In this document: in pieces, positions 11,226 to 29,893 of the stretch | Layout: each line of letters begins with the position of its first letter | Position numbering within the stretch: the first letter of the stretch is position 1 | DNA from: a virus | Taxonomy: Duplodnaviria > Heunggongvirae > Uroviricota > Caudoviricetes | DNA: 41,610 bases | IMG/VR virus record: IMGVR_UViG_2537561977_000020 | Direction: 5' to 3' (one strand) | Translations under genes and position numbers: made by a program | Notes under the pieces: generated by a model | Seen by the model: only the letters and a program-made list of their open reading frames with translations | Databases searched by the model: none | What the model was told of the DNA's origin: nothing

Positions 11226-11773
11226 TTAAATTAGTGCTTCAGCATCAGCACTTTCGCTGATATCGTCGAAATCGTCAGCGCTTGCCACTCCGCCGCCAGC
11301 GAATGCATCGCCGTCTCGCAGGAACTGGACTCCGCCGAGTGAGGCATTAATGCGTTTACCGAAATTATTGTCCTGTGCCCAGATATCGATAACGGCGTTT
11401 ACATAGCACCCTGCATAGGGACGTCCATCAGCCTGAATTAGTGGCGAACGATCGCGATCAAGAACAGCTGGGCGCGCTTTGTTAGCAGCGTTCAGGAAGA
11501 AATTGCCGGGAAAGCCTTCATACTCTGCTTTTTCATCACCATCATGCAGGCACAGATTGAGTTTTTCTCCAGCTGGTTATAAATGGACTCCAACTTCTCC
11601 CCCCATTTTTCCTTCGCTACCTGCTTCATAGCTTTACGGATTTCTTCCAGTTGTGGGTGTTTGGGAGACATTAAAAATACTGCGGAGAAACGCGGATCGC
11701 CTTCGCCGTTTACAGTTTTAGCTTCAAACAGAGCAGGAAAAGCTAATCTCACGTTATTTAATTTAATCTTCAT
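11226..11773 (-). CDS. DUF2815-type phage single-strand DNA-binding protein, frame-broken
   Basis: N-terminus MKIKLNNVRLAFPALFEAK; continues in -1 frame after T5 run 11562-11566 as LCLHDGDEKAEYEGFPGNFF...ending 11226; track shows only 11492..11773. Confidence 0.6.
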
Positions 11774-12285
11774 TTCAAAACTCCTATAAATTCTATGGAT
11801 TCTTTTTCCGCTGCTTTACGCGCAATTACAGCTTCCGCTACGGAATTAAATAGACCTAAATGTTTTTCTTTGCCGTGCAGCTTTATATAAGCTCTCCACT
11901 TATTACGGTGACGGCAAACCCCAACGGCACCGCTTTTATTATCAGAGCGTAAGGATTGGTTAATGTTATTTTCGGTAGAGGTTACAAGTCGTAGATTAGA
12001 AAGGGTGTAATTGCTCCGATTTTTGTCTATGTGATCTACCTCTAATCCCGAGGGGATACTACCGTTATGCATAACCCAGACGATGCGATGTAACAACATT
12101 TTCCGACCGTTTACACTTACGTGATAATACCCGTCCGGCCTTATATGTCCCGCTTGCTTATCTGCATATTTAGCATTCCAGGACAAATAGTCTCGCCGGG
12201 TTTTAAAATGGGTGAGCGGACGATATTTCCATATTAAAACGCCATTGTGATACCGGAAGCATTCATTTAAATATTCTTGATCCAA
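11770..12285 (-). CDS. HNH homing endonuclease (HNH + AP2-like DNA-binding domain)
   Basis: EVDHIDKNRSNYTLSNLRLVTSTEN and SGAVGVCRHRNKWRAYIKLHGKEKHLGLF. Confidence 0.65.
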   Translation of the reverse strand: MDQEYLNECFRYHNGVLIWKYRPLTHFKTRRDYLSWNAKYADKQAGHIRPDGYYHVSVNGRKMLLHRIVWVMHNGSIPSGLEVDHIDKNRSNYTLSNLRLVTSTENNINQSLRSDNKSGAVGVCRHRNKWRAYIKLHGKEKHLGLFNSVAEAVIARKAAEKESIEFIGVLK

Positions 12286-12299
12286 ATAACCTCCTTAAA

Positions 12300-13601
12300 T
12301 CAGATGAGGTCTGCGGTTAGCGTATCGTCGGATACGTCGTCGAAATCATTTACAGGGTTGATATTGAGTGCGGGGTGTGGGTCTGACTCGGGAACGACGG
12401 TGGGTTTACCATCAGCTCGTGTTATCAGTGCCTCGACTTTTGACCAACGGCGCGGACTGGCCTTTTTGATAAGTTTTTCGGCTTTTGTGGGACTAATAAG
12501 TTTAAAGTCGAATACTTCTTCAGTTTTGTACCTGAACTGGTCCTTCAGAAGTGCGCGAGCTGCCTCTTCATCACTCCAGGCCCGGTTACCTTGTTTTCCT
12601 GTTACCAGTTTAAACCCCGGTACCGGATGTCCGGCATTGAGTTCATTGTGAACCCGGTCCCGTACTGCCTTTAGCCAGGATTCAATAAAGTCGGCCTGAC
12701 TATAGATCTCCGCAAGCTGCTCAATGGTTAACAGAGGTACACGTGCGCTGGCATTGGTGATTATTTCGCTGACAGGCTTTGTCAGATCTTCAAAATCGCT
12801 GGCCGCTGTTTGTAAATGCTGCATTTTCTGGGCAGTGCAAATAGCTTTTGCTTTACAGAAGCGGCACTGTTTTTCTCCAGGTATGAAGTTTTCCAGCGGT
12901 AGTGTCTCAATGCCTTCGCATTCAGCAATATTGAGAACAAGGATCGCACTGGTTGCGGCCTCCAGCGCCCGTTCACCGAAAGACTGAAGTTCCTGTACGG
13001 TTAACGACCATTCTGAAACGTGGTTGAGCCTTGGCTGGTGAATAAATAATCTTACAGTTTCAAAGTCATACAGCATGCTGAATTGTTCAAGCGCACCCAG
13101 AGCATATAGTTGTAGTTGCTCATTTTGTTCTGCATCAATGCGGACGCCTTTGCCATATTTCAGGTCGTGGATTTGTAATTCGTTACCAGCGATGATTATG
13201 CCGTCGGCAGTTCCGAAAGATTCTTCCACCCCCGTTATATGTGAGAAATCAACACGTTGTTCAACCAATAGTTCATTATTCTGTGCAAGAGTCCAGACCG
13301 TATCAACATACCGGCCAACGGCTTCGACCATTTCATCATCCACCTGTGGGCCAGATGTATCATCAGGATTTTCGCGAAGGGGGTATGAGCCGAGAAACAT
13401 AGAAACATTGCATCCGGCGTAGTGTTCCGGGTGGCTTTGCCTGTTTCGTAGAACTTTTTCAGCAAGTGCGTGCGCTGCAGTGCCCTCGATTGCAAAAGTT
13501 GTTTCTTTATCCGGTTGTGTGGCCTCCAGCGCCAGACTACCCGCACACCTTAGCCAACGATGTGCAGATGATGGTGATAATCGTGCATGAACATCAGGCA
13601 T
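12300..13601 (-). CDS. DUF2800-type PD-(D/E)XK nuclease
   Basis: N-terminal [16 protein letters not shown] and C-terminal Cys cluster [10 protein letters not shown], recalled for DUF2800 proteins that accompany DUF2815 and PolA in phage replication modules. Confidence 0.6.
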
Positions 13602-14112
13602 TCATGACCTCCTGAATGTGTTTTCGCCGCGCAGCCGCTGCGAGTTGTTTGGTGGGGAAATGACCGAGAGATTTGAATTTGCCGTTTACTCGTCCGTAGG
13701 CCTGCCACGGTTTTTTCTTACCTTCGCTGAACCGAACGCCAACCACTCCAGATTTATTTTTTCTGGTGTGAGAGTTAGCCCTGTTTTGTGAAAGAGAGGC
13801 CCAGCGAAGATTTACCGCCCGGTTGTCATCTCGACGACCGTTAATGTGGTCAACTTCAGGGGCAGATCCGGGAATAAATGCTGCGGCAACGAGACGGTGT
13901 ATTTTGACGGTTACCTTTTTACCCGCTTTCCATAAGTCGGTGATTAGATATCCGTCTGTGTCATAGCGTGGTTTTAGTGACTTACCTTTAATGGGATAGG
14001 TGCAGCCAGAACCTTTGTTTAATACAGTTCTGTCGAGGCTTCTCAGGTTGCCAGCGTCTGAAATCTGGTAAATGCCTTCAAAGCCTGAAATATCCTTCCA
14101 GGCTTCCGGCAT
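13594..14112 (-). CDS. HNH homing endonuclease (NUMOD4 + HNH + AP2-like)
   Basis: [79 protein letters not shown]. Confidence 0.65.
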
Positions 14113-15017: not shown

Positions 15018-15196
15018 ACTGTGGTCCTCGCTACAAGGAGAATGAAAGTGATGATCAGACCGAGCGCAGTGGCAACGGCCAGACCGGTCATCAAATCGAA
15101 GTTTTTACGGCGATAACGGAGAACATCGCGCCCCGTCAGTCGATGGAGGTATTCAGGTTTCATCGGTTGTATTCCTTTTTTCATATCGGGGAGCAC
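15014..15196 (-). CDS. small hypothetical membrane protein
   Basis: 60-aa ORF with hydrophobic C-terminal segment LAVATALGLIITFILLV; first ORF after PL-side terminator. Confidence 0.3.
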   Translation of the reverse strand: MLPDMKKGIQPMKPEYLHRLTGRDVLRYRRKNFDLMTGLAVATALGLIITFILLVARTTV

Positions 15197-15222
15197 GCTG
15201 TTGCGAGTGCGCTTTCAGACAT

Positions 15223-15248
15223 AAAAAAGCCCGTCACTTGCGGCGGGC
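15223..15248 (-). terminator. intrinsic terminator (tL-like) upstream of early-left genes
   Basis: Minus-strand hairpin GCCCG-CCGCAAGUGA-CGGGC then U6. Confidence 0.5.
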
Positions 15249-15322
15249 AAAGACTACACACAGCAATTACATGGATATCATCGAGTGCCTGCTTTTAACC
15301 ACATCAGGCGAGGTGGTTCTCC

Positions 15323-15370
15323 TTGTACCCCTACAGTGAGAAATCGTCTAATATCTCTTCACCCCTACAG
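15323..15370 (+). promoter_or_regulatory. putative promoter with direct-repeat sites upstream of ORF 15388
   Basis: TTGTAC (15323-28), 18 bp, TCTAAT (15347-52); exact 10-mer ACCCCTACAG at 15327-15336 and 15361-15370; inverted repeat around RBS. Confidence 0.35.
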
Positions 15371-15387
15371 TTTGAGAGAGATTAGAT

Positions 15388-15957
15388 ATGTCTGAAGAAA
15401 AAGGAATTCTTTCCCGGATAACTGAATCGTTATCCGGCGTGGGAGGAGCAATTAAAGGCGCGGTTGGAGCAGCAAGAGAGATTCAGAATCTGACTGTCGA
15501 CTATGCAGTTAAAGAGAAGACGCACACCTTACTCGATAAGTTAATGGATGTTCAGATGCAGCAAATGTCGCTTCAGGAGCTGCTGATTGCGGCTAAGGAG
15601 AAAATTGTTGAACTGGAAAATGAGAAAGTAAAGCAAGAGAACTGGGCCGCTGAAGCGGCGAGCTATGAACTTTACCAGCCTATGCGGGGTACTCTGGTCT
15701 ATCGCAGCAAGCTTTCTGCAGATGCTGACCAATCTCCGGTTTATATTTGTCCCAATTGCTACGAGCAAAAGAGAAAATCTATATTGCAAGCGGAAGGTCT
15801 GGTTACTAAGCCAGGCCTTGAGCGAGCCGTTAATATGGTTTGTTCGCACTGTAGGGCTTCCTATCTGTTCAACCGAAATGCTTTAGAGGCCCGACTGCCT
15901 TCTGAAGATGAAAATCCGGGGAAGGCAATCACGGATTACGATCCTTACAACCAGTAA
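15388..15957 (+). CDS. hypothetical protein with Gly-rich N-terminus, coiled coil and C-terminal zinc ribbon
   Basis: 189 aa; CPNC...CSHC Cys pairs; ATG 15388 with GAGAGAG upstream; convergent with PL transcription. Confidence 0.5.
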   Translation: MSEEKGILSRITESLSGVGGAIKGAVGAAREIQNLTVDYAVKEKTHTLLDKLMDVQMQQMSLQELLIAAKEKIVELENEKVKQENWAAEAASYELYQPMRGTLVYRSKLSADADQSPVYICPNCYEQKRKSILQAEGLVTKPGLERAVNMVCSHCRASYLFNRNALEARLPSEDENPGKAITDYDPYNQ

Positions 15958-16171
15958 TTTCTTTAAGCATGGGTACCCTTCCGGCCACCCAGAGTTAAAG
16001 GAACTAAGCGCCCCATCGTCGGGGCGTTTCAACTTGCGTGACTTATCAGTTCGTCGCGGTGTTGTCCTCTACGCTTACCGTACGCATACGGACTCGGCGC
16101 TTACCTCGATCCCATCGGGTGCCATTTCATTTTGCCAGGAGTACTGCGGCTTACCTGTCACGCGGTTCAGT

Positions 16172-16184
16172 TTGTTAAAGAGCG
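16172..16184 (-). promoter_or_regulatory. boxA-like antitermination element downstream of PL-like promoter
   Basis: Minus strand CGCUCUUUAACAA, matching rrn/lambdoid boxA consensus GCTCTTTAACAA. Confidence 0.5.
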
Positions 16185-16201
16185 ATTACTTATTGCGATT
16201 A

Positions 16202-16236
16202 AAAATACAAGCAAACCTGTGAATGCGTCAACAGGT
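16202..16236 (-). promoter_or_regulatory. PL-like early-left promoter with operator-like sites
   Basis: Minus strand TTGACG (16231-16226), 18 bp, TATTTT (16207-16202); operator-like TACAAGCAAACCTGTG (16206-16221) and ACCTGT/ACAGGT inverted repeat flanking -35. Confidence 0.45.
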
Positions 16237-16292
16237 ATTTTGGTAATAAAATGCATTATTAACCTAATTACTTGTTTTTACGGGTAATAAAA

Positions 16293-16312
16293 AAGAGGGC
16301 CTAAGCCCTCTT
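16293..16312. terminator. bidirectional intrinsic terminator downstream of cI
   Basis: AAGAGGGC-CTAA-GCCCTCTT hairpin flanked by A6 on one side and TTTGTTT on the other. Confidence 0.6.
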
Positions 16313-16333
16313 TGTTTAGTAGTCAGGATGCGA

Positions 16334-16963
16334 TTATCTTTTTCTGCGGAATATGCGATGTTCTACCATTGTCCCTATGATCTTAATTGGTTTTTCCCAG
16401 GAGCGACAAATAGGGTAATCACTATTCAATGGAACAAGTTCAAAGTCTTCCTCACCTTTAGCGCCAATCCCTACCGGGCGGTATTTTTTGAACGTTGCTT
16501 CGTGGCTACCGTTACATGCCGCAACGAATTCACCAGGAGTAGGGTATACGTCAGTGTCAATTATAACGATGTCCCCCTCTTTAAATTCAGGTTCCATTGA
16601 ATCCCCACGTATACGTAGCGCAAATGAACTTTCTGATAGCTCAGCCGTGGTGAGAATGTATTCGAAATCACCTTCTTCACGAAGTAGCTCAGCGCTTGTG
16701 AAAGCCCCGGCTTGTACGTAGCTTAGAACAGGCACCCTTCGAGCTCCGTAGTTGAAATCTGTAACAACATCGCCCCCAAGAAGTAGCCATTTAGGATCGC
16801 ATTCAAGAGCTGACGCTAAAGCAAGAAGATTGCGTGGTTTAAGTGTTTTCCCATTCTCTATAGCTTCAATCGACTGCTGGCTAATGCCCGCTCGTTTCGC
16901 AACTTCGACCTGAGTTAAGTTTAGTTCTGTTCTGCGTTTTTTAGCTCGGTTGGCAAGATTCAT
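16334..16963 (-). CDS. cI: CI-type repressor (HTH + S24 LexA-like peptidase domain)
   Basis: HTH LNLTQVEVAKRAGISQQSIEAIENG; S24 motif RIRGDSMEP; start MNLANRAKK at 16963 with AAGGAG RBS. Confidence 0.8.
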   Translation of the reverse strand: MNLANRAKKRRTELNLTQVEVAKRAGISQQSIEAIENGKTLKPRNLLALASALECDPKWLLLGGDVVTDFNYGARRVPVLSYVQAGAFTSAELLREEGDFEYILTTAELSESSFALRIRGDSMEPEFKEGDIVIIDTDVYPTPGEFVAACNGSHEATFKKYRPVGIGAKGEEDFELVPLNSDYPICRSWEKPIKIIGTMVEHRIFRRKR

Positions 16964-16990
16964 GTTGACTCCTTTTCTGTCATTGATGAT

Positions 16991-17051
16991 TACAGATACT
17001 TCTGTATTTGACAAACAAGGTTGCCTGTGAGGTAATTACAAGTAAACCTGT
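16991..17051. promoter_or_regulatory. OR-like operator/promoter region between cI and cro
   Basis: Palindrome TACAGAtactTCTGTA (16991-17006), TACAAGTAAACCTGTA (17036-17051), TTGACA (17008-17013) with 17-bp spacer to GGTAAT. Confidence 0.5.
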
Positions 17052-28863: not shown

Positions 28864-29893
28864 TGAATAAATTTAAACAGCATTATGCGACGGCAAGTCG
28901 CGACTACGGGATTATTCTTCCCGGAGCACAGGCTTATTTGCCGAAGGAGTACGCCGCCGATTACGGACTGGCGATGGACGCGCAGCCTGCGCTGGTCACA
29001 GCGGCTAACAGCGGTATCCCTGCGTATTTCACCAATTACGTTGAGCCAGAACTGATCCGCGTGCTGGTGACGCCGATGAAAGCCGCTCAGATTCTGGGCG
29101 AAACCAAAAAAGGTGACTGGACGACACTGTCGGCACAATTCCCGATTGCAGAATCTGACGGGGAGGTGAGTTCCTACGGGGATTACAGCAACAACGGGGT
29201 GGTAAGCGCAAATGTCAACTGGGTACCGCGCCAGAGCTATCACTTCCAGACCTTCACCGTATGGGGCGAACGTGAGCTGGAGATGTACGGCGCAGCCCGT
29301 ATTGGCTGGGCGGCAGAGCTGAACGTGGCGTCAGCACTGACGCTGAATAAGTTCCAGAATAAGTCCTATTTCTACGGTATTGCCGGACTGACGAACTACG
29401 GTTTGCTGAATGATCCGTCGTTATCTGCACCAATCACCCCGGATACCGTTGACGGTAAACTGAAGTGGGACGACAAGGACGGACAGGGCGTGTATGACGA
29501 TATCGTGAAACTCTTTAAGCAACTGGTGAAACAGACTAACGGTCATATTGAGCGTACCGACAAAATGAAACTGTGCATGTCGCCGCTGGCAGAGGTGAAC
29601 CTCACCAAAACAAACCAGTACAGGGTTAACGTGTCCGATCTGCTGGCGAAAAATTTCCCGGCGATGACCATTGAAACGGCGGTGGAATACACCTCTGACG
29701 CTGGCGAGCTGGTACAGCTTATCGCGGAGCGTCTGGGTGAACAGGATACAGGCTATTGCGCTTTCACTGAAAAAATGCGCGCCCATGCGGTAGTGGCAGA
29801 TACGTCTTCCTGGAAACAAGAAAAAATCCGCTGGTACCGTGGGGGGCGATTATTCGCCAGCCGCCGGCGTATGCACAAATGCTGGGGGTGTGA
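28863..29893 (+). CDS. major capsid protein (Mu gpT-like), frame-broken near C-terminus
   Basis: Track ORF ends in basic junk after A6 run 29821-29826; -1 frame gives ...[17 protein letters not shown] ending 4 nt before next ATG. Confidence 0.55.

Follow-up and report, generated by a model that had tools for sequence, protein, structure and literature searches.

The virus record IMGVR_UViG_2537561977_000020 (Caudoviricetes) consists of 41,610 nucleotides, hereafter the window, and represents a prophage, which in Escherichia coli O121 adjoins yfhL/shoB. The subject of this report is a gene for a protein of 189 amino acids (aa) with an ATG start codon (15388..15957, plus strand). The gene lies between, on one side, a PL-like early-left promoter (TTGACG-18-TATTTT, a promoter-like site at 16231..16202, minus strand) with an exact match to the rrn-type boxA (GCTCTTTAACAA; 16183..16172, minus strand) in the leftward leader and, on the other, the leftward genes, which in the list of open reading frames (ORFs) begin at 15196. 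It is antisense within the early-left transcription unit, as had been pointed out in a preliminary description made from the sequence without database searches. That description recognised no family for the product, regarded its function as undescribed and guessed at exclusion or abortive-infection cargo. The profile and structure searches that it proposed have now been run, and phmmer, BLASTP and Foldseek all led to the same protein, Rip1.

The rip1-like gene and its product

A search of PDB sequences with the predicted protein returned one strong match, entry 9oox, 'ring interacting pore 1 (Rip1)', which is a cryo-electron microscopy structure of the Rip1 of Escherichia phage HK446 bound to the small terminase of phage T6, released on 2026-02-04. 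The phmmer alignment pairs residues 3-166 of the protein with residues 3-162 of the PDB entry (E=2.6e-47), and a family profile matches the same entry with E=1e-66. BLASTP comparison with HK446 gp37 (Rip1) gave 52% identity over 166 residues (E=4e-59), and comparison with gp30 of Pseudomonas phage JBD30 gave 28% identity (E=1e-16). An AlphaFold model, for which 14 homologues served as input (pLDDT 70.5), displays two helices, residues 3-34 and 39-90, and after them a small beta domain. Foldseek matched this model to 9oox_M with E=2.5e-10, a target TM of 0.90 and an rmsd of 2.2 Å over 128 columns, the next-best fold match in the PDB having an E of about 1. A profile search of 1.84 billion cluster representatives retrieved 3405 relatives with a cut-off of E≤1e-3 and 2045 with one of E≤1e-10; therefore, the Rip1 family is a large one.

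The protein is composed of an N-terminal Gly-rich helix, a long coiled-coil helix and a C-terminal beta domain with four cysteines, and it has a tail ending in ITDYDPYNQ. A Gly/Ala/Ser-rich, Gly-zipper-like stretch (GVGGAIKGAVGAA) is located inside the predicted helix 3-34, and in the BLASTP alignment this region is similar to the N-terminus of HK446 Rip1. The cysteines at positions 121, 124, 152 and 155 (CPNC...CSHC) are the only ones in the protein; together with W86 they are invariant among the 14 homologues, and they are also aligned with the cysteines of the HK446 protein. The ORF, the coiled coil and the paired cysteines had all been read correctly from the letters alone. Nothing significant was obtained from Pfam, NCBIfam and PADLOC 2023, and the SieB profile PF14163 does not match the ORF. 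PHROGs assigns the protein to phrog_1244, 'unknown function' (E=7e-40), and RefSeq and phage records label it 'hypothetical'. Models of the family are missing from Pfam, NCBIfam and PADLOC 2023; it is nevertheless a known one, with PDB 9oox as its solved structure, and the protein is a new member of it rather than the first of an undescribed family. It agrees with Rip1 in sequence, in fold, in the CxxC...CxxC pattern and in being the product of a prophage accessory gene. Strong homology predicts that the product of 15388..15957 is an anti-phage protein of the Rip1 family. The same homology supports the guess of exclusion or abortive-infection cargo; the observation made in the preliminary description is confirmed and its interpretation stands in part, the kind of function having been judged correctly and the novelty of the family not.

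According to the summaries of Patel et al. (Nature 651:1060, 2026, doi 10.1038/s41586-025-10075-1) in a review (PMC13434031) and a meeting report (PMC12908700), Rip1 is a prophage-encoded abortive-infection defence made of a single protein, which is non-toxic when present alone. As related there, twelve Rip1 subunits cap the 11-mer ring of the small terminase, the C-terminal half touching the ring and the N-terminal amphipathic helices forming the pore. The Rip1-ring complex makes liposomes leak dye and perforates cells, and the outcome is premature lysis ahead of phage maturation; escape mutants are found in the portal for phages of Pseudomonas and in the small terminase for those of E. coli (PMC13434031, PMC12908700). 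Rip1 is triggered by some phages only, and single changes in portal or small terminase allow escape (PMC13434031). In these accounts, ring assembly, pore formation and protection are known for the HK446 and Pseudomonas proteins only (PMC12908700, PMC13434031).

With HK446 Rip1 the window protein shares the three-part architecture, the four cysteines and the fold (TM 0.90), and the two genes share a sieB-type 5' region (see below) as well as a genomic slot antisense inside the PL operon and adjoining the immunity region. The window protein is, however, 25 residues longer, with a tail (...ITDYDPYNQ) that is absent in HK446 Rip1 and similar to that of JBD30 gp30 (RYDPFSE). The prophages also differ: the backbone of the window is non-lambdoid, with a family-A DNA polymerase, DUF2800/DUF2815 proteins and a primase, and there is no N between PL and rip1.

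The C-terminal YDP(Y/F) motif (residues 183-189; 15934-15954) is found in the window protein, in two of its relatives (P0004 and P0012) and in JBD30 gp30, and not in HK446 Rip1. Lambda SieB has SYDPYN near its C-terminus (~2093-2110 of L136) and P22 SieB is without the motif. The YDPYN coding regions of the window rip1 and lambda sieB show no similarity at the DNA level, and recombination was therefore rejected as the origin of the shared motif, which may be either a short functional motif or a coincidence.

A sieB-type promoter and an antisense region upstream of rip1

In phage P22 (NC_002371.2) the annotated promoter of the exclusion gene sieB occupies positions 29690..29720, the mapped RNA start is at 29727 and a conserved element lies directly upstream. 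Positions 15285-15371 of the window align base for base with P22 29651-29737, both copies of the repeat ACCCCTACAG included, and lambda has the same sequence upstream of its sieB. By homology to P22, rip1 possesses a sieB-type promoter (15324..15354, plus strand) with the −35 hexamer TGTACC at 15324-15329 and the −10 hexamer TAATAT at 15349-15354, the latter being TATAAT in most other versions of the region. The transcription start, predicted from the mapped P22 sieB RNA, is A15361 (plus strand), and the ATG is preceded by the Shine-Dalgarno (SD) sequence GAGAGAG (15374-15380, plus strand). When the window, a 46% identical allele from a related prophage, HK446 and prophages of Yersinia and Photorhabdus are compared, the ~105 bp upstream of the rip1 ATG are better conserved than the coding sequence.

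The 41.6-kb window has exactly two copies of ACCCCTACAG, one at 15327 and the other at 15361, where 0.05 occurrences are expected by chance; two matches were seen in one of 100 shuffles. The exact repeat extends over 11 nt (ACCCCTACAGT) at a spacing of 34 nt. Because of the homology to the P22 start, copy 1 (15327..15337, plus strand) can be placed over the −35 hexamer and spacer, and copy 2 (15361..15371, plus strand) at the start of the predicted rip1 mRNA, where the repeat forms the first ten bases and is followed by the SD sequence. In addition, the two 12-nt arms of an inverted repeat (TCTAATATCTCT / AGAGAGATTAGA; 15347-15358 / 15375-15386; 92% complementary) span the −10 hexamer and the SD sequence. 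The preliminary description had noted both the direct repeats in the promoter and the inverted repeat over the ribosome-binding site (RBS), and both are there. The promoter region with the direct repeats is not peculiar to this gene and stands in front of at least 14 unrelated families of cargo in enterobacterial prophages (see below).

The repeats also bear on a different reading of the gene, in which the product would be a nucleic-acid-binding protein with a zinc ribbon that regulates early-left transcription, with the repeats as binding sites for this regulator or for the prophage repressor. Weak, sub-threshold matches to zinc-ribbon Pfam families and the position of the locus next to the immunity region speak for such a regulator. 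It is contradicted by the strong match, in sequence as well as in fold, to a pore-forming protein of solved structure, and the repeats are common to phages with different repressors and to other cargo genes. We consider this reading extremely improbable. Binding of the prophage repressors to the repeats, as earlier proposed, is an unlikely lead as well: repeats and flanks are conserved in lambda, P22, HK446 and the Yersinia and Photorhabdus prophages, which differ in immunity, and the repeats coincide with the mapped sieB promoter, mRNA start and antisense RNA of P22.

The antisense RNA of P22, sas, is 127 nt long, and its sequence was available from an RNA-seq study of 2026 (PMC13397905). It maps to P22 29636..29762 (minus strand) and thereby extends from the second codon of sieB through the SD sequence, the 5' untranslated region (UTR) and the promoter to a little past the conserved element. 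According to Ranade and Poteete (Genes Dev 1993, via PMC7067206 and PMC12197685), sas shifts translation from SieB to the inhibitor Esc, and P22 thus escapes its own exclusion. On the minus strand of the window, positions 15399->15285 are 84% identical to P22 sas over 109 nt. This sas-like region (15285..15399, minus strand) is complementary to the rip1 start codon, SD sequence, 5' UTR and promoter, and the window and P22 RNAs are each predicted to fold into three stem-loops. In the window, SL-A is the RBS-spanning inverted repeat, SL-B includes the minus strand of repeat 1, which supplies its loop and one arm, and SL-C, at the 3' end, is the conserved element (TGCCTGCTTTTAACCACATCAGGCGAGGTGGTT; 15285..15320), in which the inverted repeats GCCTG/CAGGC and AACCAC/GTGGTT overlap. 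The element is present in one copy in the window and in none of the shuffles, and its alignment contains compensatory variants.

The sequence of the direct repeat varies from one version of the region to another (CCCCTACAG, CCCCAACAACA, TTCCACAGTCA, CCCCAACATAA, CCCCCACAA), and within a version the two copies agree. Among the matches listed, a repeat of at least 8 nt at a spacing of 33-35 nt is present in 53 of 71 versions, as opposed to one of 71 shuffled ones; a G-rich (GGGG) apical loop of SL-B is kept on different stems across 47 versions when these are folded individually; and RNAalifold, applied to 55 versions, recovered only the invariant SL-C. The two repeats presumably co-vary because the loop of SL-B would have to match the 5' end of its target mRNA.

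Other interpretations of the upstream element were dropped, namely a sigma-E −10 (GTCTAA), a sigma-54 or sigma-32 promoter, a LexA box, a DnaA box (TTAACCACA), an RfaH ops site, Chi, an intrinsic terminator on either strand and a target-site duplication by a mobile promoter; the grounds were bases unconserved in HK446 or FWSEC0003, a missing T tract, or wrong spacing. A pseudoknot formed by the overlapping inverted repeats in the 5' UTR of the rip1 mRNA was rejected because the mapped P22 start lies downstream of them.

Homology to P22 thus predicts that rip1 is transcribed from a sieB-type promoter and that a sas-type antisense region extends over the point where its translation starts. The likeness to the sieB loci of P22 and lambda comprises a near-identical promoter, the 5' UTR repeats, the antisense-RNA region and the location antisense in the PL operon, where the gene of lambda, P22 and HK446 is moreover convergent with N or gene 24. 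SieB and Rip1 are alike in being prophage-expressed abortive-infection proteins that act at the membrane. As proteins, however, they are unrelated: the window product has no PF14163 domain and consists of a soluble coiled coil and a Cys domain, whereas SieB has N-terminal transmembrane segments. The loci differ further in that the window has no recognisable internal start of the Esc type and in that its sas-like region runs directly into an RprA-like 3' domain with a terminator.

This RprA-like 3' domain (15219..15273, minus strand) contains AAUUGCUGUGUGUAGUCUUUGCCC followed by a strong intrinsic terminator, which is the first that leftward transcripts meet past rip1. The 24 nt of AAUUGCUGUGUGUAGUCUUUGCCC, upstream of the terminator at ~15222, agree in every base with the RprA 3' seed region, and blastn against chromosomal rprA aligned 46 nt at 82.6% identity. 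The Rfam family RF00034 matched 15219-15332 (minus strand) in its 3' half only and with 47.5 bits, below the gathering score of 70, so the element was not assigned to the RprA family. The domain is part of the prophage backbone, its full version being found in ~150 E. coli genomes, and where relatives lack rip1 it serves a small Cys-rich ORF as 3' UTR. It may represent a phage-made RprA mimic or a 3'-derived small RNA.

The rip1 cassette and its genomic settings

In order to assess the distribution of the locus, 5426 complete E. coli genomes were surveyed. The region is matched in 169 of them, ~49 of which have the whole locus, and many other E. coli genomes share the left flank only, up to window position ~15276. 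The slot differs among related E. coli prophages whose flanks are the same: in one it is occupied by a 174-aa allele (the 46% identical one mentioned above), and two have no rip1 and a small Cys-rich minus-strand ORF there. The ORF in the latter two is zinc-finger-like, ~66 aa long, in PL orientation and unannotated in RefSeq (L004 2075-2275 and L006 3575-3775, minus strand).

Downstream of rip1, the search for inverted repeats identified two hairpins on the plus strand, the first with 20-nt arms that are 75% complementary (15955-16006) and the second GC-rich with a weak T tract (16006-16029). A downstream hairpin had been described as part of the gene unit; it is present, at 16006-16029, and does not belong to the unit. 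Because they are found also in relatives without rip1, this hairpin and the ~170 nt up to boxA are assigned to the prophage backbone. The gene is carried as a self-contained cassette of ~15277-16000, bounded in this way because flanks, hairpin and leader are common to prophages with differing slot content. In this respect it resembles rexAB and the morons of lambdoid phages (Juhala et al. 2000; HK97 gp15), which are likewise autonomous promoter-gene units between phage genes; the prophage expresses them, and of phages that are otherwise alike some have them and others do not. Unlike these, the rip1 unit has a control region of a specific and widely shared kind, with a predicted antisense RNA, and not just any promoter and terminator.

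The orientation of the gene was compared in several settings. In HK446, rip1 lies between N and a ral-like gene and is convergent with N, and the homologue in the Yersinia prophage is arranged in the same way. The Photorhabdus homologue is antisense and immediately precedes the small terminase gene, and that of JBD30 is antisense between a small-terminase-like gene and the large terminase gene. In two further relatives of the window prophage type rip1 is likewise opposite to its neighbours. In every context examined, rip1 is antisense to the neighbouring lytic operon.

These data also bear on whether the gene still serves defence. A diverged relative of Rip1 could have lost this activity or could serve the phage itself, for example by timing lysis once the packaging rings have assembled; 48% of the residues differ from HK446 Rip1, and the extra C-terminal tail has its YDPY motif. 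Against a decayed gene, every invariant position of the family is conserved over the full length, and a cluster of 102 member sequences holds the allele in intact form at no less than 96% identity; ~49 complete E. coli genomes, furthermore, have the locus in full. Against a lysis helper, a location antisense to lytic transcription behind a lysogen-type promoter is the opposite of what such a helper needs, and the phage encodes its own holin, endolysin and Rz. We therefore regard loss or diversion of the defence function as very unlikely.

The remainder of the prophage includes an integrase, the leftward early operon, a repressor, cro, a primase, Q, lysis genes and, about 8 kb to the right of rip1, a small terminase, the leftward operon encoding a family-A DNA polymerase, DUF2815, a DUF2800 nuclease and HNH endonucleases. 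Isolated phages that are near-identical to it are vB_EcoM-611R5 and its relatives. The repressor (16334..17014, minus strand) is of the CI/LexA type, with Pfam matches to HTH_3 and Peptidase_S24. An operator-like 18-mer within the PL-like promoter (16203-16220) has a second copy at 17034-17051, next to the genes of the repressor and cro. Comparison of related prophages located a mosaic junction of the immunity region directly to the right of boxA. The leftward leader that starts with boxA (16007-16183, minus strand; ~170 nt) is invariant across prophages with different immunity regions and cargo. For positions 16000-16195 there was no Rfam match and the fold is no more stable than those of shuffles (z=+0.46), and a put-like or other structured antitermination RNA was dropped on these grounds. 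Antitermination of the lambda N/nut type was likewise not assigned, boxA being exact and accompanied by no boxB and no N gene; in the ORF list of the window no N-like ORF lies between the PL-like promoter and the terminator.

Two ORFs resembling HNH-type homing endonucleases are situated among the early-left replication genes (13594-14112 and 11770-12285, both minus strand). The former matches NUMOD4 and HNH_3, and its absence from some relatives that are co-linear in other respects (L005) points to a mobile endonuclease gene. A weak Rfam match to sraA (27.4 bits, E=0.31) at 16233-16324 (plus strand), over the bidirectional terminator that follows the repressor gene, is most likely due to chance.

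Proposed control of Rip1 in the resident prophage and the wider use of its upstream region

A defence that fires on ring-shaped packaging proteins endangers the prophage that carries it, and the region behind which rip1 sits is the one by which P22 avoids exclusion by its own SieB. By analogy with P22, we infer that a sas-like RNA, arising from leftward early transcription, would shut off Rip1 in the phage's own lytic growth. To the reading as a whole, a Rip1 defence protein behind a sieB promoter that would be silenced by a sas-like RNA during lytic growth of the resident phage, we assign a probability of roughly 0.8.

In the lysogen, PL would be repressed, only the rightward rip1 mRNA would be made, from the sieB-type promoter, and Rip1 would wait as an inactive monomer. 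Late in infection by another phage, ring oligomers of its small terminase or portal would template the assembly of 12 Rip1 subunits through their C-terminal domains; the N-terminal helices would then form a pore in the inner membrane, and the cell would die before progeny mature, that is, by abortive infection. Upon induction of the prophage itself, leftward transcription from the repressor-controlled PL-like promoter would cross rip1 antisense and yield the sas-like RNA (15399->15285), complementary to the rip1 RBS and start codon, before meeting the terminator at ~15222. Synthesis of Rip1 would stop, the phage's own terminase and portal rings would trigger no suicide, and its packaging would be protected.

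Several observations weigh against this proposal. The N-terminus is Gly-rich, as the preliminary description stated; its amphipathicity, claimed in the same phrase, is modest by the hydrophobic moment, with a maximum of 0.45 that 310 of 2000 shuffles also attain, and because the moment fails to separate the N-terminus from shuffles the term 'amphipathic' relies on the homology to Rip1. The protein is only 52% identical to a characterised Rip1 and has the extra 25-residue tail. In P22 no good sigma-70 promoter was seen for sas. Finally, an Esc-like internal start would have to be sought at Met53, Met57 or Met60, which have no clear SD sequence and are not conserved in distant homologues.

The first alternative to be weighed is that the protein is a Rip1 homologue and the antisense layout has no sas-like role, the 5' region being a good constitutive promoter that came along with the cassette and self-protection, if needed at all, resulting from rings of the phage's own that Rip1 does not recognise. 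Given that Rip1 is triggered by some phages only and is escaped through single changes, the resident phage's own proteins are plausibly insensitive; furthermore, no promoter was found for the sas-like RNA, and the conservation of the hairpins could partly reflect recent shared ancestry. The minus-strand hairpins are, however, kept by compensatory changes, and changes in the two copies of the repeat go together in at least five sequence versions, for which a promoter alone is an insufficient explanation. P22 sas is a real RNA over exactly this region, and the antisense orientation recurs in four unrelated genomic contexts. We regard this alternative as rather unlikely, while giving it more weight than the readings discussed in the preceding sections.

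Silencing of rip1 by a sas-like RNA would have a parallel in a different phage system. BstA is reportedly a prophage defence protein with a self-immunity element, aba (said to have been described by Owen et al. in 2021). There, as at the rip1 locus, a defence gene is located near the repressor and comes with a built-in device that spares the phage's own lytic cycle. The devices differ, aba being a DNA element inside bstA and that of rip1 a proposed antisense RNA over the translation start.

To find out how widely the control region is used, IMG/VR was scanned for exact matches to a pattern of the most conserved 24 bases of the element, which gave at least 120 loci in at least 74 distinct versions; blastn with the element found 163 phage records, lambda and P22 included. 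Among the matches listed, the first ORF downstream of the element belongs to at least 14 unrelated clusters at 109 loci. The largest of these clusters is Rip1-like (30 loci), and other cargo in the same set of listed matches comprises a second, distant member of phrog_1244 (137 aa), a SieB-like protein (PF14163, E=5.8e-9) and ~10 families of small unannotated proteins. In a crude ORF-based count over the listed matches, the most frequent loci were those whose cargo runs opposite to the genes on either side (44 of 120). In about ten IMG/VR versions (L037, L038, L040, L042 and similar ones) the 35-nt element occurs alone, without promoter and repeats, beside a TTGACA promoter with operator-like repeats and just past the 3' end of a repressor-like gene.

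The surveyed literature, to which the primary Rip1 paper did not belong, made no mention of Rip1 sharing the sieB/sas region or of a general cargo cassette, and a full-text search with the element sequence returned only unrelated primer lists. Both points are possibly new, and we offer them only as a lead. Tentatively, and with somewhat less than even confidence, we suggest that the sieB promoter and sas together form a portable cassette, on in the lysogen and off in the lytic cycle, that is used by unrelated cargo (Rip1, SieB and at least 12 further families of unknown function). For Rip1 it would provide RNA-based self-immunity, the SL-B loop would recognise the repeat in the mRNA, and in the window an RprA-like, Hfq-type 3' end would be fused to it. 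If so, pairing of the SL-B loop (GGGG and flank) with the 5' repeat of the mRNA would explain why the direct repeats co-vary.

As regards the family, proteins now listed as hypothetical or under phrog_1244, those of ~49 of the 5426 E. coli genomes included, can be renamed Rip1-family defence proteins. The shared antisense control region is nevertheless the more interesting part of the locus than the identity of the protein, and its sas-type portion offers a concrete candidate answer to the problem of self-killing. Should the cassette prove general, new exclusion genes could be found with the 35-nt element as a sequence tag, and the more than 12 small unannotated cargo families that this shared 5' element marks are good candidates for new exclusion functions.

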